This document shows, piece after piece, positions 3,181 through 48,578 of a DNA stretch of 64,000 bases (positions are counted from its first letter, which is position 1; each line of letters begins with the position of its first letter). The DNA is taken from NCBI GenBank assembly GCA_937872895.1, contig CALMUP010000008.1, positions 225,613 to 289,612 of the forward strand, in the 5' to 3' direction. The notes under the pieces are model-generated. The model was given only the letters and a program-made list of their open reading frames with translations, did not search any database and had not been told where the DNA came from. Source of the stretch: an uncultured Verrucomicrobiota bacterium. Lineage in GTDB: Bacteria > Verrucomicrobiota > Kiritimatiellia > CAIVKH01. Made by a program: the position numbers and the translations under genes.

Positions 3181-3885
3181 TCAGGAGTCGGTACCGAGTC
3201 GGCGACGACAGGAGGCGCACCCTAGCCAGGAATGTTTGTTGCGATTCCAACACCAGCCCAGGCGGGGGCGGCCATAGCTGATCCAGATGGAGGGAATGCG
3301 TTGGTCGGCGCGACGGGACCCGGGAAGTTGGAAACAATTGAAGTACCGCTTGTCGGTCAGGATATGGGGGAACTGGACGACCAGCGCCACGCCTTCGTCG
3401 ATGGTCAGGGGCGAGCGGCGTCGGGCTCGGATCATGCGGAGCGCATCTTCGGGACGGATGTCCAGGGTGTCGCGTCCGCTCTCGACCTGTTCCAGCAGGT
3501 ACAGGTCACCAGGCGGGATGGCCATCCGGTTGATCGGGTGGAAATCGGTCGGGACAACGGGATCCATGTTCACGATGCCGGATGCGCCACGAATCGTCAC
3601 AGTGGCCATGGCATCCTCCATCGGCACGGCTTGCTGTTTGACCACGACGACAAACGGGAGACGATCCGGGCGGGCTCGCACCACGAGGTCGCCGAGGCGC
3701 CTCTTGAGCGCACGTGCCTGTCGGCGGAATGAATGAATCGGAAGACTTGTGGTCCCGGTCAACCCAATGCTCTCCAGGTGGGCGATCTGTCGGTCATATT
3801 CAAGTTCCAAGGTCCGGAGCGTAGTTGTCATGATGCGGTGTTTGGTTTCATCTGGTGTGCGGTATGAAATGGACGTTGTATCCAT
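3181..3885 (-). CDS. Hypothetical protein with no recognisable domain, immediately downstream of the HerA-like ATPase gene
   Basis: Long ORF on the same strand as flanking genes. The ORF-track start at 3894 is TTG, so I prefer the ATG at 3883-3885 (MDTTSISY...). I recognise no motif. Confidence 0.45.
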   Translation of the reverse strand: MDTTSISYRTPDETKHRIMTTTLRTLELEYDRQIAHLESIGLTGTTSLPIHSFRRQARALKRRLGDLVVRARPDRLPFVVVVKQQAVPMEDAMATVTIRGASGIVNMDPVVPTDFHPINRMAIPPGDLYLLEQVESGRDTLDIRPEDALRMIRARRRSPLTIDEGVALVVQFPHILTDKRYFNCFQLPGSRRADQRIPSIWISYGRPRLGWCWNRNKHSWLGCASCRRRLGTDS

Positions 3886-4058
3886 GCGACGCAAGGTATG
3901 CGGTCAAGCCGTTGCTTGCGCCCGTAGCCGGATTGCGTTCACGCGCGTTGTTCCTGTGCGTGTAACCATGCTCGTGGGTGCGCGTATCCCATATTCGCAT
4001 AGGTTGTTCGCTTATGACAAACCCCGGCGGGGCCTACGGGTTGGGAGGTTGGGATGCA

Positions 4059-6497
4059 TTAGCCCTGTGGGAGCCAGGCAATGCCGAAGGCGGTGATGGA
4101 GATGTCGGACTTCCTCGGGCGGATCGTGGTGGTTTCGATGGTGAGCGCGGCGAGGTCGGTGGCCTGTTGCAAGGCCTGCAAGTCGTTCTGCAGTTCCTGT
4201 TCGGCGATCGCCAGTCGTTCCTTGACCGCCTCGTGGGAGTCGCTGGCCATCTCGATGTCCCGCTGTTCCTTGCTGGTGCGCCCGGCGCTCCGCATCGCGG
4301 TCCCGGCCCGGCTCATCGTGCTGGCCGACATGGCCCGGCGTCCGAGCAGCGCGCCGAGGATGGTGGTGCCGACGGAAATCGCGGTGGACATGCGTTGCTG
4401 GCCGAGCTGATCCTTTTCCTTTTCAATCCGTGCGGCTGCTTTGCGCACCTGCTCCTGGAGGCCGAGGATTTTCGTGCTGTGCTTCTTGCGGATCTTCTCC
4501 ATCTCGATGTCGCGTTTCTCGTGCGCGGCCACCTGCAGGCGCGCCTTGAAGTCACCTTCGCTTTCCCCGGGCTTGGAGGCGAATTTGAGTTCCGGACAGG
4601 TGAACAGTTCGAGCACGGTCTCCTGGTAGATGTGCGACTCGAGCATCTTGGACCACAGCTTGAAGTTCGCCGGACGGGCGATCGCGTCCGGCAAGGGATC
4701 AAACGACGCACCGGCGAGCGGCTGGCGGTCGAGCCCGTCGAGCGAACCCAACGCGACATCGGCCCCGGTCCAGGCGAACTCCTCGGCGCGCTCGATGGCC
4801 GGATGCAGGTACTGCGCGGAGATCCAGGTATCGGTCTTGGTCTTGGCATCGACGAAGTGCAGGCGGGCCTGGGCGATCACCGCCGGCCGGTACCGGTCTA
4901 TGGCCGCACCGGCCTGTTTCGGGCGCACGAAGAATTCCTCGACGCCGGGCGGCGGGGGCGGGCGAACCGCCGCGGTAGCGGCCGGTGCAGGCGCGGTGGC
5001 GACGGCGGGCGCTACGTTCTGGACAACCGGGGCGGCGGGGATCGGCGCTGCGGCCATCGCCGCGACGGCAGCTTCGACCGGGTGTGGAGCGGGGGCGGTC
5101 AGCGATTTGATCTGGCCCAGGGTCAGTGGTCCGCGCAGGAACGACATGACCCAGCGGGTCTGGAACAGGACCGGATGGGCCTGGTGGACGTTGTGGAGAA
5201 GGAACACGCGGTTGCCGAGGCCGGAGAGCAGGGTGTCCATCTCGCTGCGGGAGAACCCGGCACCGGACCCTTGCGCCGCGCTCTCGAGCCCGTCGAGCAC
5301 CCGCGCCTTGTCGCGGTCGGTCTGCAGGCGGCCGATCAGCCAGGTGCCGGTGTTGGCGAGGCCCTTGTAGTCGAGGTCCACCGGATTCTGGGTGGCGAGC
5401 ACGACGCCGAGGCCGAAGGCGCGGGCCTGTTTCAGCAGGGTCAGCATGGGCTGCTTCGAGGGAGGATTCGCGGTCGGCGGGAAGTAGCCGAAGATCTCGT
5501 CCATGTAGAGCAGGGCGCGCAGGCTGGAGGTGCCGGACTGGGTGCGCATCCAGGCGAGTACGGCATTGAGCAGGATGGTGACGAAGAACATGCGTTCGCT
5601 GTCGGCGAGGTGGGCGATCGACAGGATGGTCAGGCGCGGTTTGCCGGCCGGCGTGTAGAGCAGGCGCTGGATGTCCAGCGGTTCGCCCTGGGTCCAGACG
5701 GCGAACCCGGGGGAGGCGATCAGGTTGTTCAACGACATGGCGAGGCCGAGGCGGTCGTTGGCCGGGAAGAACGAGTCGAGGTCGAACACGCCGACCTTGG
5801 CGAACGGGGGTTTCTGGATGGCGTGGATCAGCGCGGGAATGTCGAGGTTCTGGCCGAGGCGCCAGTGGTGGTCCATGATCGAGGAGAGGAGGATGTGTTC
5901 GCGGCTGCGCAACGGATCGCCGTCGATGCCGATCAGGGCGAGCAGGCCGGAGACGGCGGACAGGATGTAGTCGCGGAAGGCCGAGGTGTCGTCGATGGTC
6001 TCCTGCGGCGGGGCATCGAACGAGCGCAGTACGGTCAGTGGGCGTCCGGCCGTACTGCCGGGAGTGTAGATGCTGACGTCGGCAGCCTGTTTCAGTCGGG
6101 CGATGCGGTCGACGGGCTGGTGCCAGTCGCCGAGGCCCTTGCGCCACGTCTCGGCGGTTTTCTCGGCGAGCTGCGGGAGGGTCATGCCTTTGCGCGCGGC
6201 GTCGGCGGCTTCGAGCCACGGTTCGAAATCGGATGGACGCAGTTCAGGGAAGGTCAGGAGCAGGTTGCCGAGGTCGCCTTTCGGATCGATGATCAGCGCC
6301 GGAATGCCATCGATGGCCGCCTCCTCGAGCAGGCTGATGCACAGGCCGGTTTTGCCGCTGCCGGTCATGCCGACGCAGACCGCGTGGGTGGTCAGGTCCT
6401 TTGCGTCGTAGAGCAGCAGGTCATCGGTCACCTGTTTCGTCGCCGCATCGTAGGCCTTGCCGAGATAAAACGATCCGAGTTTTTCAAAGTCCTGCAT
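4059..6497 (-). CDS. HerA/FtsK-like P-loop ATPase (DUF853/DUF87 helicase HerA central-domain type) with an Ala/Pro-rich linker and a large C-terminal extension
   Basis: Walker A GMTGSGKTGL, Walker B-like LLYMDEIFGYFPP, HerA/DUF853-like conserved blocks, then an APAPAATAAVRPPPPP linker and a roughly 280-aa charged/coiled C-terminal region. Start set at MQDFEKL, 16 codons into the ORF. Confidence 0.7.
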   Translation of the reverse strand: MQDFEKLGSFYLGKAYDAATKQVTDDLLLYDAKDLTTHAVCVGMTGSGKTGLCISLLEEAAIDGIPALIIDPKGDLGNLLLTFPELRPSDFEPWLEAADAARKGMTLPQLAEKTAETWRKGLGDWHQPVDRIARLKQAADVSIYTPGSTAGRPLTVLRSFDAPPQETIDDTSAFRDYILSAVSGLLALIGIDGDPLRSREHILLSSIMDHHWRLGQNLDIPALIHAIQKPPFAKVGVFDLDSFFPANDRLGLAMSLNNLIASPGFAVWTQGEPLDIQRLLYTPAGKPRLTILSIAHLADSERMFFVTILLNAVLAWMRTQSGTSSLRALLYMDEIFGYFPPTANPPSKQPMLTLLKQARAFGLGVVLATQNPVDLDYKGLANTGTWLIGRLQTDRDKARVLDGLESAAQGSGAGFSRSEMDTLLSGLGNRVFLLHNVHQAHPVLFQTRWVMSFLRGPLTLGQIKSLTAPAPHPVEAAVAAMAAAPIPAAPVVQNVAPAVATAPAPAATAAVRPPPPPGVEEFFVRPKQAGAAIDRYRPAVIAQARLHFVDAKTKTDTWISAQYLHPAIERAEEFAWTGADVALGSLDGLDRQPLAGASFDPLPDAIARPANFKLWSKMLESHIYQETVLELFTCPELKFASKPGESEGDFKARLQVAAHEKRDIEMEKIRKKHSTKILGLQEQVRKAAARIEKEKDQLGQQRMSTAISVGTTILGALLGRRAMSASTMSRAGTAMRSAGRTSKEQRDIEMASDSHEAVKERLAIAEQELQNDLQALQQATDLAALTIETTTIRPRKSDISITAFGIAWLPQG

Positions 6498-9256: not shown

Positions 9257-9330
9257 GCGGGTATAGTTCAATGGTAGAATAGAAGCTTCCCAAGCTTCGG
9301 GCGCGGGTTCGATTCCCGCTACCCGCTCCA
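9257..9330 (+). tRNA. tRNA-Gly (anticodon CCC)
   Basis: GCGGGTATAGTTCAATGGTAGAATAGAAGCTTCCCAAGCTTCGGGCGCGGGTTCGATTCCCGCTACCCGCTCCA. The 7-bp acceptor stem GCGGGTA/TACCCGC, D-loop, anticodon stem GAAGC/GCTTC with loop TTCCCAA, T-arm GCGGGTTCGATTCCCGC and encoded CCA are all present. Confidence 0.85.
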
Positions 9331-9351: not shown

Positions 9352-10533
9352 ATGGTGTTTCGATTGCTTCCCCTTTTGCTGGTGGTGGGTTCCGTGCAGG
9401 CCGAGTCGTGGGAGCGGGTGGCGGAGGGGAACCGGGCGTTCGCGGTGTCGCTGTACCGGGAGGTGGCGGGCGAGCCGGGCAATGTGTTCTTTTCCCCCTT
9501 CAGCATCTCGACGGCACTGGCCATGACCTATGTCGGAGCCCGGGGCGAAACGGCCGCGCAGATGCAATCAACGCTGCACTTTCCCGAATCACCCGAGTAT
9601 TTGCCGGAGGTCTGGGGCATGTGGCAGTCGCGGGTGGATCAGGTGGGTCGTGAGGGCAAGGTGACGCTTTCGGTGGCGAACTCGCTGTGGCCGGACGAGC
9701 GCTATCCCTTTCTTGATACCTACATGGCGACGGTTCGGGAACGTTTCAGGTCGGAGGTGTTCCCGGTGAACTTCGCGGAGACGGAGGCGGCGCGCCAGCA
9801 GATCAATACCTGGGTCGAGGACGCGACGGAGCAGTTGATCAAGGACCTGATCCAACCGGGCGTGTTGAATGCGCTGACCCGCATGGTGCTGGTGAATGCC
9901 ATCTACTTCAAGGGAACGTGGCAAACCACCTTCGGCCCCGAAGTGACGCGGCCGCAACCGTTCCACCTCGCCGATGGCTCGGTGATCGAGGTGCCGACGA
10001 TGTACGGGAAGGTGCCGGCCCGGTATGCGGCGCTCGATGGGGTGCAGCTCCTGGACCTGCCGTACCGGGGCGACCAGGTGTCGATGCTGGTGGTCGTGCC
10101 GGATACGCAAGAGCGGATGGCGGACCTGGAACGTTCGCTGTCGGTCGCGGTCATGGATCAATGGCTGGGCGCGGTCGAACCGACCGAGGTGCGGGTGTTC
10201 CTGCCGAAATTCACGATGACCCAGCACCTCGCTTTGTCGAAGATCCTGCAGGCGCTGGGCATGGTCGTGCCGTTCGATGACAAGGCGGCGAATTTCGCCG
10301 GCATGGACGGCCATGAAAACTACCTGTACATCAGCGACGTGGTCCATCAGGCCTTCGTCGCGGTGGATGAGGCGGGCACCGAGGCGGCGGCGGCGACGGC
10401 GGTGATCATGCAGGCGCGTTCGATGCCGCGGCCGAGTCCGGAGTTCCGGGCCGACCGGCCGTTCCTGTTCTTCATCCACGAACGCGCCAGCGGTAGCATC
10501 CTGTTTGCCGGGCGGGTGATGGATCCGCGGTAG
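9352..10533 (+). CDS. Serpin (serine protease inhibitor) family protein, secreted
   Basis: Signal peptide followed by serpin-family blocks (FFSPFSISTALAMTYVGARGETAAQM; NAIYFKGTWQTTF) and a hinge/reactive-centre-like region (EAGTEAAAATAVIMQARSMP) with a C-terminal PFLFFI motif. Confidence 0.85.
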   Translation: MVFRLLPLLLVVGSVQAESWERVAEGNRAFAVSLYREVAGEPGNVFFSPFSISTALAMTYVGARGETAAQMQSTLHFPESPEYLPEVWGMWQSRVDQVGREGKVTLSVANSLWPDERYPFLDTYMATVRERFRSEVFPVNFAETEAARQQINTWVEDATEQLIKDLIQPGVLNALTRMVLVNAIYFKGTWQTTFGPEVTRPQPFHLADGSVIEVPTMYGKVPARYAALDGVQLLDLPYRGDQVSMLVVVPDTQERMADLERSLSVAVMDQWLGAVEPTEVRVFLPKFTMTQHLALSKILQALGMVVPFDDKAANFAGMDGHENYLYISDVVHQAFVAVDEAGTEAAAATAVIMQARSMPRPSPEFRADRPFLFFIHERASGSILFAGRVMDPR

Positions 10534-10539
10534 CGTCAG

Positions 10540-11480
10540 CGGAGTGAACGTTACGTGGAGGGGGAACCACGAATGGACACGAAAGAACACGAATATGGCA
10601 GGTGCGTTGGTGATGGGGCGTTGCTTTCTTTTGAGTAATGATTCAGGAGTTTAACCGCAGAGTTCGCAGAGGGCGCAGAGGGTGGATGTGATGGGGTTGA
10701 TGGAGGCTGGGGTTCTGGGGGGTGAATTTTTCGCTCTGCGTATTCTGCGCGATCTGCGGTTCATTCCTTCCGGCAGTTTAACCACGGATGGGGCAGGTGG
10801 GGTGGTGACGGGGCGTTGCTTTGCTTTGAGTATTGATTCAGAAGTTTAACCGCAGAGTTTGCAGAGGGCGCAGAGGGTGGCTGTGATGGGGTTGATGGAG
10901 GCTGGGGTTCTGGGGGGTGACTTTTTCGCTCTGCGGATTCTGCGCGATCTGCGGTTCATTCCTTCCGGCAGTTTAACCACGGATGGACACGGAGGCACGC
11001 GGATGGGAAAACGAGGATTGAACAGAAGATCGCGAAGGACACGAAGGTGGGATGAAGAGCCTTCCATCTGTAGTTCCGGCGATGTTCGCCGGAAATTGAA
11101 CATGCACGGACGAATGATATGGGAAATCGGAACCGCAGAGGGCGCAGAAACCGCAGATGGAAAAGGGGAACCGCGGATTACGCGGAGAGCGCGGATGGGA
11201 GAGAAGAAATTGAACCACCCGCTTCGCTAGAGGACACGGAGAGCACGGAGAAGAAGTATGGAAATGGGTGTAGTAGCCGCTCCGTGAGCGGCAGGGAAAC
11301 GGAACGGACCTTGAACCGCAGAGGACGCAGAGACCGCAGAGGAAAAACGAATGGGTAGGATCCGGCATCCTTGCCGGACCGCCGGATTGGGAAAGTCCAA
11401 CCGCGAATTACGCTGATGACGCGGATGGGGGAATGGTTGATGGCCAGGAACTGATTCCGCGGATGGAGCCGCAGTGCTTG
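10540..11480. repeat. Array of at least 10 degenerate 30-bp iteron-like motifs, (G)AACC followed by three RCNGA pentamers at 9-10-bp spacing and then (A)TGG, on both strands. It includes a 195-bp tandem duplication (unit 1 about 10616-10810, unit 2 about 10811-11005).
   Basis: Example instances are gaaccACGAAtggacACGAAagaacACGAAtatgg, aaccGCAGAgttcGCAGAgggcGCAGAgggtgg, gaaccGCGGAttacGCGGAgagcGCGGAtggg and gaaccGCAGAggacGCAGAgaccGCAGAggaaaaacgaatgg. The reverse-strand copy cgctctgcgtattctgcgcgatctgcggtt shows the motif is not confined to one strand. No consistent reading frame runs through the repeats. Confidence 0.6.
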
Positions 11481-11881
11481 CCCGCCAAAGGCGCGGCCCT
11501 AACCGCGCTGAGGCGGAAGCGCGCGCGGCGGGGAGGCGGGACGGAACAAGGCCGGACAACCCGGCCGAAGGAACCCAACCAGGCCCCGCCAGTACCCATT
11601 GTCGCGACCAGACCAACCCCATCCCCATTTCCATTTCCCATCTCCATTCTTCCTCTCCCTCCTCCCCGCCTTGACCCCGCCCTCCACCCGCTGGTATCGT
11701 CCGATCCAGCAAGGAGCGCAATCTGGGGGGGCATGATGAGAGCGTTAAGGAACGGAGAGATATTGGGCCGTTGCTCGACGTGTGCGGACGCAAACGAATG
11801 ATGTGTTTGCATCGATGATGGAGATGTATGGTTGCTAATGCTGAAATGATCCCCACAGCTCAATGAACAAACGATTAGCCT

Positions 11882-14278
11882 ATGATTATCTACGTCTCCA
11901 CCAAGTCCGGCTTTATTGATGACGTATCCAAGAACCGGATTGAGGATAAAATTCTCACCTTGTTCAAGCGGCAACTGAGGCAGTCTACAGGGGAAAGCGA
12001 GATTAACTCGTGGAAGAACTCGATGCAGTACATGCACAATGTTCTCGTCCACAGCAAGATTCCGGACGACGCCGGCGTCGCCATTGAATACAACATTCCT
12101 CAAACATCCAAACGGATCGACTTTATCTTGACCGGTCAGGATGGTAACCGCCGTGATACGGCGGTCATTGTGGAGCTCAAGCAGTGGCAGGAAGTCTGGC
12201 GCACAGAAAAGGATGGTATTGTCACCACCGTCCTGAATGGCCGGAAGGTAGACACAAACCATCCCTCGTTTCAGGCATGGTCGTATGCCGCCTTATTGGA
12301 GGACTTCAATGAAGCCGTGCGCACAGAGCGAATCCAGCTCTCTCCCTGCGCCTACCTGCACAACTGCAGTTCCCCCCACGAGATCAACCATCCCTTTTAT
12401 GCTGAGCATACCGGCAAGGCACCTTCGTTTCTCAAAGCGGATGTGGAAAAGCTAACGGAATTCATTGAAAATTTCGTGAAGCATGGTGACCGCGGCAAGC
12501 TGATCTATCGAATCGATCAGGGCAAAATCAAACCGTCGAAGAGCCTTGCCGATGCCCTGCTGAACATGATTCAGGGCAACAAAGAGTTTCTACTCATCGA
12601 TGACCAGAAACTGGTCTACGAAACCGCCCTTGCGCTAGCCGACAAAGCGGAGCGCCACGGTAAACAGGTGCTCCTCGTGGAAGGCGGACCTGGAACCGGA
12701 AAATCGGTAGTTGCGATTAATCTTCTGGTCGAAATCACCAAGAGGGAAAAGGTGGTCCACTATGTCACGAAAAACGCTGCACCACGACAAGTGTATCAGA
12801 GTAAACTTGCTGGTACCTTGAGCCGGACCAGAATCGAAAATATGTTCCAGGGTTCCGGAAAGTATGTTGATAAGGAGAAAAATTGTATCGATGTGCTGGT
12901 GGTTGATGAAGCCCACCGACTAAATGAAAAGTCAGGCATGTTTCAGAACCTCGGTGAAAATCAGATCAAGGAAATCATTCATGCCGCCAAGTTGAGCGTT
13001 TTTTTCATCGATGAGGATCAGCGCGTCACATGGAAAGACGCCGGGCGGAAAAGTGACATCCGCCAATGGGCGAAACGTGCGGGCGCAGCCATCACAGAGT
13101 TGGCCCTTCAGTCTCAGTTCCGTTGCAATGGTTCAAACGGATATCTGGCCTGGCTAGATCATACCCTTCAAATACGGGAGACGGCGAACAGGTCGCTCGA
13201 AGGTGTTGATTATGACTTTCGTGTTTTCGATGATCCGATCCAACTGCGGCAGGTCATCTTTGAGAAAAACCTCGAAAGCAACAAGGCGCGTATCGTGGCC
13301 GGTTATTGCTGGGACTGGATCAGCAGAGCAGACAAGCGAAAAACCGACATCAATTTCCCGGAGCATGGATTTAAGATGCGGTGGAATCTAACCGATGACG
13401 GCGGACTTTGGATTCTAAAGCCGGACTCTGTGAATGAGGTTGGTTGCATTCACACCTGCCAAGGACTTGAGCTCGACTACATCGGTGTGATTATTGGTCC
13501 TGACTTCCTGGTCCGTGATGGTCGTGTTGTTGTATCGCCTGCTAGCCGAGCCAAGACCGACCAGTCCCTGAAGGGTTACAAACAGATGGCCCGCGTAAAT
13601 CCGGATGCCGCGTTTGCCAAAGCGGCCGAGATCATCAAGAACACCTACCGAACCCTGATGACCAGAGGGCAAAAGGGTTGTTTTATCTTCTGCACCGATC
13701 CAGAAACCAATGCGTTCTTTAAGCAGATGGCATCGACGGCTATGAAGGGATGCCAGATGGCGGAACAGGTACCTTATGCCGGGATCCCATTGACAATCTT
13801 GGATGCCGCCGACGTTAGACCTTACGAGAACGCGGTCCCGGTCTATGACCTGCGTATCGCCGCAGGCATTTTCAGCGAAGAACAGCAGGCCCGTGATTGT
13901 GACTGGGTTGAATTGCCCGACCCGTTCACGGCAAAGCCCGGATACTTTGTCGCCCGGGTCGTTGGGCATTCCATGAATCGTCGAATCGCCAGCGGATCGT
14001 GGTGCCTGTTCCGCACGCCGTCTGCCGGAAGCCGAAATGGCAAGATCGTACTGGTGCAACACCGAAACATTCAGGATCAGGACCTCGGTCAATTCGCCAT
14101 CAAAACCTATTATAGCGAGAAATCCTTTGTCGGGGATGAATGGCGCCACGAGCGAATCATCCTCAAACCTGACACCACGGCATCCGGATACCACGACATA
14201 ATCCTTGAGAAGGATGAGGCCGTTGACCTTCGAATCCTTGGTGAATTTGTGGCATCTTTGGGTCAGAGGCCGGATTAA
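11882..14278 (+). CDS. Multidomain nuclease-helicase-peptidase fusion: N-terminal PD-(D/E)xK nuclease-like domain, DUF2075/Schlafen-type P-loop ATPase-helicase core, and C-terminal LexA-like S24 autopeptidase domain
   Basis: N-terminus KRIDFILTG...AVIVELKQW is a D...ExK-type motif. Walker A VLLVEGGPGTGKSVVA and Walker B/DEAH VLVVDEAHRL lie within a DUF2075-like core. The C-terminus aligns with LexA motif by motif: RIAAGIF against RVAAGEP (Ala-Gly site), ARVVGHSM against LRVSGMSM (Ser), NGKIVLVQ against NGQVVVAR, and FAIKTYYSEK against VTVKRLKKQG (Lys). GC is about 50% against about 65% in the flanks. Confidence 0.8.
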   Translation: MIIYVSTKSGFIDDVSKNRIEDKILTLFKRQLRQSTGESEINSWKNSMQYMHNVLVHSKIPDDAGVAIEYNIPQTSKRIDFILTGQDGNRRDTAVIVELKQWQEVWRTEKDGIVTTVLNGRKVDTNHPSFQAWSYAALLEDFNEAVRTERIQLSPCAYLHNCSSPHEINHPFYAEHTGKAPSFLKADVEKLTEFIENFVKHGDRGKLIYRIDQGKIKPSKSLADALLNMIQGNKEFLLIDDQKLVYETALALADKAERHGKQVLLVEGGPGTGKSVVAINLLVEITKREKVVHYVTKNAAPRQVYQSKLAGTLSRTRIENMFQGSGKYVDKEKNCIDVLVVDEAHRLNEKSGMFQNLGENQIKEIIHAAKLSVFFIDEDQRVTWKDAGRKSDIRQWAKRAGAAITELALQSQFRCNGSNGYLAWLDHTLQIRETANRSLEGVDYDFRVFDDPIQLRQVIFEKNLESNKARIVAGYCWDWISRADKRKTDINFPEHGFKMRWNLTDDGGLWILKPDSVNEVGCIHTCQGLELDYIGVIIGPDFLVRDGRVVVSPASRAKTDQSLKGYKQMARVNPDAAFAKAAEIIKNTYRTLMTRGQKGCFIFCTDPETNAFFKQMASTAMKGCQMAEQVPYAGIPLTILDAADVRPYENAVPVYDLRIAAGIFSEEQQARDCDWVELPDPFTAKPGYFVARVVGHSMNRRIASGSWCLFRTPSAGSRNGKIVLVQHRNIQDQDLGQFAIKTYYSEKSFVGDEWRHERIILKPDTTASGYHDIILEKDEAVDLRILGEFVASLGQRPD

Positions 14279-14357
14279 TCGGGATTCTGGGGAACTCCGA
14301 TGGGGGCATCCTCGTCAAAATGACGGCTGGGCGGGACTAGGGAAGAGGAGGACGGTG

Positions 14358-48185: not shown

Positions 48186-48578
48186 TCAACCCTGTCCAAT
48201 CTGCTTGTTGTCGGACTCGTCCTTGACGCTGTAGCCGGACTCCTGCCGCTGGTGGTTCACCTTGTTCTTCTGCGTGTAGAGGCGATGGACATCGTCGGCG
48301 CTCATGCCGAGGATCTGCGCGAGGGAGATCAGGAAGTGGAAAAGATCGATCACTTCCACGCGGGCATTCTGTTTGTCGAAGGTCTGGTATTTCGCCCACC
48401 ACTTCCACGGCACGCTGTCGGTCAGCTCGGCCAGTTCCTGCGACATGGCGCGGCAGTAGTTGAGGATCCACTGTGCTTGTTCCTTTTCATCCATCGCGCT
48501 GAAATCGGCCACGCCGATGCGCTTGTTGAGCTCTTCCTGCATCTGGAACATTTCAGCGAGTTTATCCTGGGTGGTCAT
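48186..48578 (-). CDS. All-alpha NTP pyrophosphohydrolase (dimeric dUTPase/MazG-like) family protein
   Basis: 130-aa acidic helical protein with an EELNKR...QWILNYCRAMSQELAELTDSVPWKWW pattern resembling the dimeric dUTPase family. Confidence 0.5.
   Translation of the reverse strand: MTTQDKLAEMFQMQEELNKRIGVADFSAMDEKEQAQWILNYCRAMSQELAELTDSVPWKWWAKYQTFDKQNARVEVIDLFHFLISLAQILGMSADDVHRLYTQKNKVNHQRQESGYSVKDESDNKQIGQG

Follow-up and report, generated by a model that had tools for sequence, protein, structure and literature searches.

The window analysed in this study is a 64,000-nucleotide stretch of contig CALMUP010000008.1 from an uncultured Verrucomicrobiota bacterium of the Kiritimatiellia. It contains an uninterrupted open reading frame (ORF), starting with ATG, that encodes a protein of 798 amino acids (90.4 kDa) in which a putative nuclease, a helicase core and a LexA-like tail are joined (Table 1). 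The product is 100% identical to a "DUF2075 domain-containing protein" of the Kiritimatiellia metagenome-assembled genome (MAG) GCA_035324595.1 (DAOLBK010000001.1). The initial annotation of this DNA had recognised the ORF and divided its product into a PD-(D/E)xK nuclease, a DUF2075 helicase and a Peptidase_S24 domain. Every motif that it quoted is present in the translation, i.e. KRIDFILTG (residues 77-85) and AVIVELKQW (94-102) in the nuclease, GGPGTGKS (268-275) and VLVVDEAHRL (338-347) in the helicase, and RIAAGIF (658-664), GHSM (695-698), NGKIVLV (719-725) and FAIKTY (738-743) in the tail, and the three domain assignments were upheld by Pfam, alignment and structure comparison.

The helicase core matches the SLFN-g3_helicase/DUF2075 family (PF09848) over the entire profile (positions 1-354 of 354, E = 2e-106, Pfam), and the motifs TCQGLE and YRTLMTRG are located in the same region, 3' of Walker A and DEAH. 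An AlphaFold model of the full-length protein (predicted local distance difference test, pLDDT, 73; predicted template modelling score, pTM, 0.47) was matched by Foldseek to SLFN11, RecD2, Dna2, Dda and Upf1, which are superfamily 1B (SF1B)-type helicases. The N-terminal domain has a restriction-endonuclease-like fold, in which D80 lies on a predicted strand (79-86) and E98-L-K100 on the adjacent strand (92-100), an arrangement typical of canonical restriction endonucleases. For residues 1-133 there was no match in Pfam or NCBIfam, and the domain was thereby assigned to no named nuclease family; the whole protein matched no NCBIfam family, and a direct sequence search against the PDB returned no matches. 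When the window protein was aligned with representatives of 85 species (86 sequences), D80, E98 and K100 proved invariant in all 86 and the Gly and Lys of Walker A are invariant throughout, while DEAH is present in 85, the region being missing from the truncated copy L011. The linker that follows the helicase varies in length and sequence, with indels at alignment columns 618-650 and low pLDDT at residues 623-629.

The C-terminal tail was recognised as Peptidase_S24 (PF00717) at residues 653-747 of the whole protein, with 30.5 bits (gathering cut-off, 23.3), and at 34.8 bits (E = 1.5e-8) when the tail was searched alone. When the tail profile was aligned by hhalign with E. coli LexA, RIAAG was paired with RVAAG (A661-G662 with A84-G85), S697 with S119 and K741 with K156. 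LexA matches of the tail profile among PDB sequences were weak (E about 0.04, about 17 bits). In the tail-bearing orthologues the cleavage site reads A-A-G in 66 and A-C-G in 8, Ser697 is invariant in 75 and Lys741 in 74. The register with LexA, the Ala-Gly bond and the Ser/Lys dyad are thus those that the initial annotation had proposed. Cleavage at this bond is predicted to yield products of 74.8 kDa (661 amino acids, ending in DLRIAA) and 15.6 kDa, and the predicted new C-terminus is I, V, F, A, L or M followed by A-A in 66 of 74 family members. The cleavage loop (661-668) is of low confidence in the AlphaFold model, which is compatible with, but no proof of, the mobility of the cleavage-site region in LexA. 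As judged from their sequences, the nuclease, the helicase and the self-cleavage apparatus are intact and under strong purifying selection, and the corresponding activities are predicted.

Table 1. Features of the nuclease-helicase-S24 gene in the window, and examples of the MazG-like partner gene in related loci.
Feature	Residues	Coordinates (nt)	Strand	Basis
Whole ORF: nuclease, DUF2075 helicase, S24 tail		11882..14278	+	
N-terminal PD-(D/E)xK restriction-endonuclease-fold domain	about 1-200	11882..12481	+	
Putative catalytic residues of the nuclease	D80; E98; K100	12119-12121; 12173-12175; 12179-12181	+	
DUF2075 / Schlafen-group-3 SF1B helicase core	261-606	12662..13699	+	Pfam, Foldseek
Helicase motifs: Walker A GGPGTGKS; DEAH		12683-12706; 12905-12916	+	
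Variable linker between helicase and tail	607-643	13700..13810	+	Alignment indels, low pLDDT
LexA/UmuD-type Peptidase_S24 tail	644-798	13811..14275	+	PF00717, hhalign, invariant residues
Tail sites: predicted scissile bond; nucleophile; general base	A661-G662; S697; K741	13862-13867; 13970-13972; 14102-14104	+	
Upstream spacer with GC drop, at the position usually held by the MazG-like gene in relatives		11700..11881	+	
MazG-like partner, examples in related loci		L006:9645-10004; L009:9633-10004; L091:7630-7986; L093:3657-3986		

Relatives of this protein were found in at least 595 species in a scan of one genome per species, i.e. about 0.3% or more of species. Thousands are present in the protein database; the top 120 metagenomic matches, each of full length (792-823 amino acids) and 58-80% identical, come from unrelated phyla, with Kiritimatiellia, Polynucleobacter, Thiodiazotropha, Nitrospirota and Anaerolineae among their sources. 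Identity within the family is 50-80% across phyla and its distribution is patchy. Ten of the 86 aligned orthologues stop at about residue 620-640 and carry no S24 domain. A neighbour-joining tree of the core, built from BLOSUM distances, places these tail-less forms in two separate clades nested among the tailed ones, which indicates that the tail was gained or lost more than once and that the core can exist without it. Two further copies, L011 (Kiritimatiellae MAG SLCI01000127.1) and L025 (Vreelandella malpeensis), have premature stops at 334 and 572 amino acids, respectively, with S24-coding sequence still detectable downstream; they are likely decaying copies or assembly errors.

The G+C (GC) content of the focal gene is 51.6%, against 62.7% in the remainder of the window, the values first given for gene and genome being about 50% and 65%. 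Gene and flanks differ by at least 3 points in 53 of 75 related loci, and the gene is the lower of the two in 44 of these 53. Plasmids of bacteria and archaea carry tail-less relatives, the archaeal matches (H5-H7, from Methanosphaera and Halalkalicoccus) being about 49% identical. A tail-less pair of MazG-like and nuclease-helicase genes is also found at positions 3657-5863 of PP438423.1 (Microcystis phage Mwe-JY31; L093), a 22-kb record deposited as a cyanophage. The GC deviation and the copies on plasmids and in the phage record point to frequent horizontal transfer. The horizontal acquisition proposed by the initial annotation is therefore supported for the focal gene, on the grounds of its composition and of the distribution of its family and not of a recognisable mobile element.

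The tail is not restricted to this family. A profile made from the tail only was searched against 1.84 billion representative proteins and matched 2064 clusters at E<=1e-3, of which 1282 were at E<=1e-10 and 306 at E<=1e-30. The matching proteins are about 100 to 1490 amino acids long, some of the short metagenomic ones probably being gene fragments, and the match is nearly always C-terminal; in three proteins (P0267, P0243 and P0221) it falls at the N-terminus or inside the protein. Among 68 matches of at least 300 amino acids, the Pfam partners were DUF2075 (14), Type_ISP_C (9), ResIII (9), DUF3427 (6), Eco57I-type methylase (4), SWI2/SNF2 (3), N6_Mtase (3) and HATPase_c_3 (2), together with the Type I HsdR domains T1RH-like_C (3), HSDR_N (2) and EcoEI_R_C (1), and XhoI, LlaJI, MmeI, McrBC, PLD and HNH once each. 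The motif x-A-A/C-G is kept 25-70 residues before G-x-S-M in 64 of the 68. Ten proteins were scanned in detail with Pfam, including a 1490-amino-acid MmeI-like enzyme, three Type ISP-like enzymes, a ResIII-Helicase_C-DUF3427 protein, an SF2 helicase, a GHKL ATPase and a GIY-YIG-DUF2075 protein. The S24 tail is detectable by Pfam in seven of the ten; the SF2 helicase (P0190) and the GHKL ATPase (P0228) have no Pfam S24 match, yet the tail profile recognises both and their site motifs are retained. Against the profile, the tails of the restriction enzymes reach 145-250 bits and LexA chains of the PDB the 17 bits or so given above. The tails therefore form a distinct S24 subfamily, specialised for attachment to restriction and defence enzymes. 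Tail-bearing examples among P0121-P0270 are P0196, P0201, P0205, P0209, P0141, P0253, P0228 and P0264.

A further tailed enzyme is encoded 2 kb from the focal orthologue of Kiritimatiellota bacterium B12222 (CP120722.1; L006:6279-8567, + strand). It is a 762-amino-acid methyltransferase and HNH_4 protein that ends in an S24 tail with the motifs LPLVGDLAAG, GDSM and IKYL, and it has a weak PADLOC match to "mad2". Its orthologues in L022 and L079 are without the tail.

In 65 of 82 assessable related loci (about 80%), a gene of about 115 codons is located directly beside the nuclease-helicase gene. It lies upstream in 59 loci, in several of them with a 4-bp overlap with the start of the nuclease-helicase gene (e.g. 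L006, L007 and L009), and downstream in the Halomonas group. Its product is MazG-like (PF12643, Pfam), with mammalian dCTP pyrophosphatase 1 (DCTPP1, or RS21-C6; PDB 2a3q/6sqw) as the closest solved relatives (E = 8e-24), and no PADLOC or NCBIfam model matched it. The papers searched, which did not extend to subscription-only ones, made no connection between such a protein and DUF2075. The partner accompanies both tailed and tail-less forms, including eight of the ten tail-less orthologues and the copy of the phage record; it is present beside the 80%-identical relative P0002, and a 29-amino-acid remnant of it is left in L011. In the window, no MazG-like partner or remnant was found near the focal gene at E<=10, so the focal copy is regarded as an orphan. 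Weak similarity to the partner (tblastn, E = 0.03) was seen at window 48237-48461 (- strand), far from the focal gene, and this may be an unrelated housekeeping MazG-family gene. DCTPP1 prefers 5-modified dCTP. Phages escape the distantly related Nhi-like system (described below) by losing a DNA methylase (10.1101/2022.08.27.505566). It would be pure speculation to link the partner to modified-cytosine DNA or to nucleotide sanitation. HNH_2 was considered as a third conserved component and was rejected, being present in only about nine loci.

Apart from the MazG-like partner, nothing is conserved around the gene. The 150 immediate neighbours, called by a simple longest-ORF rule, fall into 136 Pfam families and include no conserved housekeeping or repair partner; the commonest families are RhuM, AbiEi, HNH_2, NERD, C5-methylase, Mrr, nSTAND3, PIN and Fic. 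A complete ZacABC system adjoins the gene in L006, where NERD and HNH genes and the methyltransferase-HNH-S24 protein are also present, and HigBA, VapBC, HepT/MNT and a caspase-like protease with E1/E2 genes were seen in individual loci. This is the pattern of accessory defence and toxin-antitoxin (TA) islands and not of a housekeeping operon, the enrichment being qualitative. It agrees with the defence-type rather than housekeeping character that had been suggested for the focal gene.

The nearest described systems are the single-protein anti-phage nuclease-helicases Nhi (S. epidermidis SERP2475) and Nhi-like (Millman et al. 2022), in which an N-terminal PD-(D/E)xK-type nuclease and a DUF2075 SF1B helicase form the same kind of polypeptide (bioRxiv 10.1101/776245; 10.1101/2022.05.11.491447). 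They are likewise patchy in distribution, horizontally transferred and often near other defence genes. Similarity to them is weak and partial: the matches of the PADLOC Nhi and AbiO models are confined to residues 233-416 of the focal protein (E about 1e-13; 234-416 and E = 7e-13 for Nhi), about one third of the model, and there is no full-length match to Nhi. Moreover, the C-terminus of Nhi is poorly conserved and glyoxalase-like, without an S24 tail (10.1101/776245), and a MazG-like partner is not reported for Nhi. The best PADLOC match (E = 8e-20) is PDC-S41, a computational candidate with a model of about 657 positions, the length of the tail-less form; the match is partial, covering residues 21-309 (the nuclease and the start of the helicase), and PDC-S41 is not known to have an S24 tail. 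The highest-ranking Foldseek match (E = 2e-11) is human SLFN11, which shares the DUF2075-type helicase at 12% sequence identity but has a Schlafen/AlbA-type RNase instead of a PD-(D/E)xK nuclease at its N-terminus and no S24 domain. SLFN11 acts in a DNA-damage context.

As for the tail, LexA, UmuD and lambda cI share with it the S24 match, an Ala-Gly bond about 35 residues before the Ser, the Lys in register and, in LexA, the -xAA end; UmuD has a Cys-Gly bond, as in eight orthologues of the focal family. What differs is the part N-terminal to the cleavage site, which is a 661-residue nuclease-helicase here, a repressor domain in LexA and cI, and a 24-residue arm in UmuD. The parts are thus all of known kinds, an Nhi-type nuclease-DUF2075 protein and a bona fide S24 tail, and their combination appears to be new. 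In the literature outside subscription-only papers, we found no description of a nuclease-DUF2075-S24 combination, of the MazG partner or of such a tail on restriction enzymes, in line with the earlier remark that no characterised system was known to have this exact architecture; S24 or LexA is not mentioned in the BREX and Dnd comparative-genomics papers nor in the bacterial Schlafen paper.

We tentatively favour, at a little under an even chance, the view that the focal gene belongs, as a lone copy gained by horizontal transfer, to a widespread and uncharacterised Nhi-type family, in which the tail is a built-in brake on autoimmunity, i.e. an off-switch triggered by activated RecA. According to this view, the nuclease-helicase would attack foreign DNA with no need of the tail. 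Damage to self DNA, including damage by the enzyme itself after transfer to a new host, would lead to filaments of RecA on single-stranded DNA (ssDNA), and these would stimulate the tail to cut between A661 and G662. The dimerising S24 domain would thereby be detached, and the remaining 661-residue nuclease-helicase would end in -IAA, a C-terminal degron like those of ssrA and LexA. This fragment might then be degraded by ClpXP-type proteases, or might be inactive owing to the loss of dimerisation.

Classical restriction-modification enzymes attack incoming unmodified DNA without a trigger. A switch turned on by activated RecA would defeat the purpose of Type I, ISP, IIL and II enzymes, because their attack on entry precedes any RecA filament. 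The same tail is found on restriction enzymes that act before RecA is activated and that need alleviation upon DNA damage, and for this reason the off-switch is favoured over an on-switch. In addition, the natural tail-less orthologues, in two clades and with a MazG partner in eight of ten cases, suggest that lack of the tail neither silences the core nor makes it lethal. Precedents exist for both halves of the proposed mechanism. ClpXP degrades the HsdR subunit of EcoKI in restriction alleviation, through a degron still to be identified, and alleviation operates when unmodified self sites arise during repair, recombination or acquisition by a naive host (PMC4231737). LexA-like autocleavage exposes C-terminal degrons, the N-terminal fragment being passed on to ClpXP (PMC7101444). 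The proposed logic would be that of EcoKI, in which proteolysis disposes of a helicase-nuclease subunit once self DNA is endangered (PMC4231737), by analogy and not by homology; in EcoKI the signal is prolonged translocation and there is no self-cleaving domain, whereas in the focal family the sensor and cleavage module would be in cis.

Several points weigh against the off-switch. Self-cleavage, its dependence on RecA, the degron and the nuclease activity are all inferred from sequence. The -xAA end is no independent evidence of a degron, because it is also the consensus of S24 substrates, and eight orthologues would end in -AAC. Phages that generate ssDNA could exploit an off-switch triggered by activated RecA. 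DNA damage is documented as an activating signal for the nuclease-helicase defences Hachiman and AbpAB. The focal copy, which has neither defence island nor partner, could be a decaying or functionally altered orphan. Finally, the suggested anti-phage role is drawn by analogy from the Nhi and Nhi-like architecture and from the neighbourhoods, not from close sequence membership.

The initial annotation had read the tail in the opposite direction, as a module whose cleavage releases or activates the enzyme. The uncleaved protein would then be auto-inhibited, for example as a dimer held by the S24 domain, and cleavage stimulated by RecA, activated in the course of phage replication or DNA damage, would free an active nuclease-helicase, resulting in loss of phage DNA or in abortive infection. 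We consider this unlikely. The intact and invariant cleavage site and dyad fit it, and the flexible linker and the low-confidence arrangement of the domains (pTM 0.47) leave room for auto-inhibition. UmuD, which is activated by S24 self-cleavage to UmuD', is a precedent for activation. Hachiman and AbpAB respond to DNA damage or to phage single-stranded DNA-binding protein (SSB), and phages escape Nhi by way of SSB (10.1101/2022.08.27.505566). On the other side stand the tails of Type I HsdR, Type ISP, MmeI-like, XhoI, LlaJI and McrBC-type enzymes, which need no activation, those of Type I, Type ISP, MmeI-like and Type II having to act before RecA is activated, and the two clades of mostly MazG-associated tail-less orthologues; both fit a brake better than a release. 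On this reading, subsequent loss of the -IAA fragment by degradation would turn the activation into a pulse.

Alternatively, the tail could work independently of RecA, either mainly as a dimerisation module or by constitutive cleavage, which would give the enzyme a short half-life and make its level track its synthesis. Among translocating restriction enzymes, action in dimeric form or through collision is frequent, a point in favour of the former. LexA and lambda cI dimerise via their S24 domain, and the LexA-like IrvR cleaves itself constitutively without RecA, its fragment being cleared by ClpXP (PMC7101444). However, A-A/C-G, Ser and Lys are strictly invariant, whatever the phylum and however different the host enzyme, which shows that cleavage itself is selected; dimerisation alone is therefore improbable, and we regard a RecA-independent tail as decidedly unlikely.

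A role outside defence, as a Dna2- or AddAB-like nuclease-helicase for repair or replication restart that is recruited or regulated by RecA filaments in the SOS response, would suit the structural likeness to Dna2 and RecD2, the SOS-type regulatory domain and the ordinary neighbours in the window, but is very improbable in view of the patchy occurrence (about 0.3% or more of species) at 50-80% identity over unrelated phyla, the foreign composition, the variable defence- and TA-rich neighbourhoods without conserved repair genes, the copies on plasmids and in a phage record, the pseudogenised copies and a tail held in common with restriction enzymes.

The tail could be a portable self-destruct module that senses activated RecA and was repeatedly added to ATP-dependent restriction and defence nucleases as restriction alleviation in cis, a generalisation that is plausible but that we hold somewhat more loosely than a coin toss. 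It would then be a general and previously undescribed answer to the autoimmunity or establishment problem of horizontally transferred defence systems. How a defence nuclease avoids its own DNA is a long-standing question, sharpest after DNA damage, during recombination and after transfer to a naive genome. A nuclease-borne LexA-type tail would, if the brake is real, be a simple modular answer in at least ten enzyme architectures and hundreds of species, and would carry the LexA/UmuD principle beyond repressors and polymerase subunits, into the realm of effector enzymes. Should the tail be an on-switch instead, the protein would be a new abortive-infection effector gated by activated RecA. In either case, the conserved DCTPP1-like partner is a second unexplained component of a widespread candidate defence system.

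The surroundings of the focal gene in the window are ordinary. The low-GC segment, at about 11,800-14,300, is essentially just the focal ORF. A tRNA-Gly(CCC) gene lies at 9257-9330, and right after it, at 9352-10533 (+ strand), is a gene of native GC content whose product is a bacterial serpin of full length (PF00079, E = 1e-116), the N-terminus resembling a signal peptide. A gene-free spacer of 1.35 kb separates the serpin gene from the focal ORF, and a membrane protein, a large secreted protein and SecA are encoded downstream. The region around the focal gene yielded neither an integrase nor a replication gene, and no recognised defence neighbour and no Rfam element either. Of the tRNA-Gly-adjacent block that the initial annotation described, the tRNA is thus present, but the native-GC serpin gene intervenes and there is no integrase; nor is a defence-island or mobile-element setting recognisable between flanks such as the serpin, the membrane protein and SecA.

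The repeats upstream of the gene had been taken for an iteron-like array. A 35-nucleotide motif with three CGCAGA(G/T)-like heptads occurs at 10560-11470 in at least six repeats and in both orientations, with no Rfam match and no replication gene nearby. An iteron function thus found no support, and the repeats were treated as unrelated to the focal gene. A 195-bp tandem duplication, 93% identical, is located at 10588-10977, and AACCGCAGAG-like words are over-represented in the spacer (13 observed, 4 expected). In a promoter and terminator scan, sites were no commoner than in shuffled sequence, and a single weak sigma-70-like site was seen at 11671-11700. Further upstream, 5.4 kb from the focal gene, an 811-amino-acid DUF87/HerA-like ATPase is encoded at 4059-6497 (- strand), with weak PADLOC matches to mad8/HerA (E = 7e-14 to 1e-5). 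It is possibly a separate defence-type ATPase, and its gene is adjoined by one for a DUF5701 protein at 3181-3831 (- strand).

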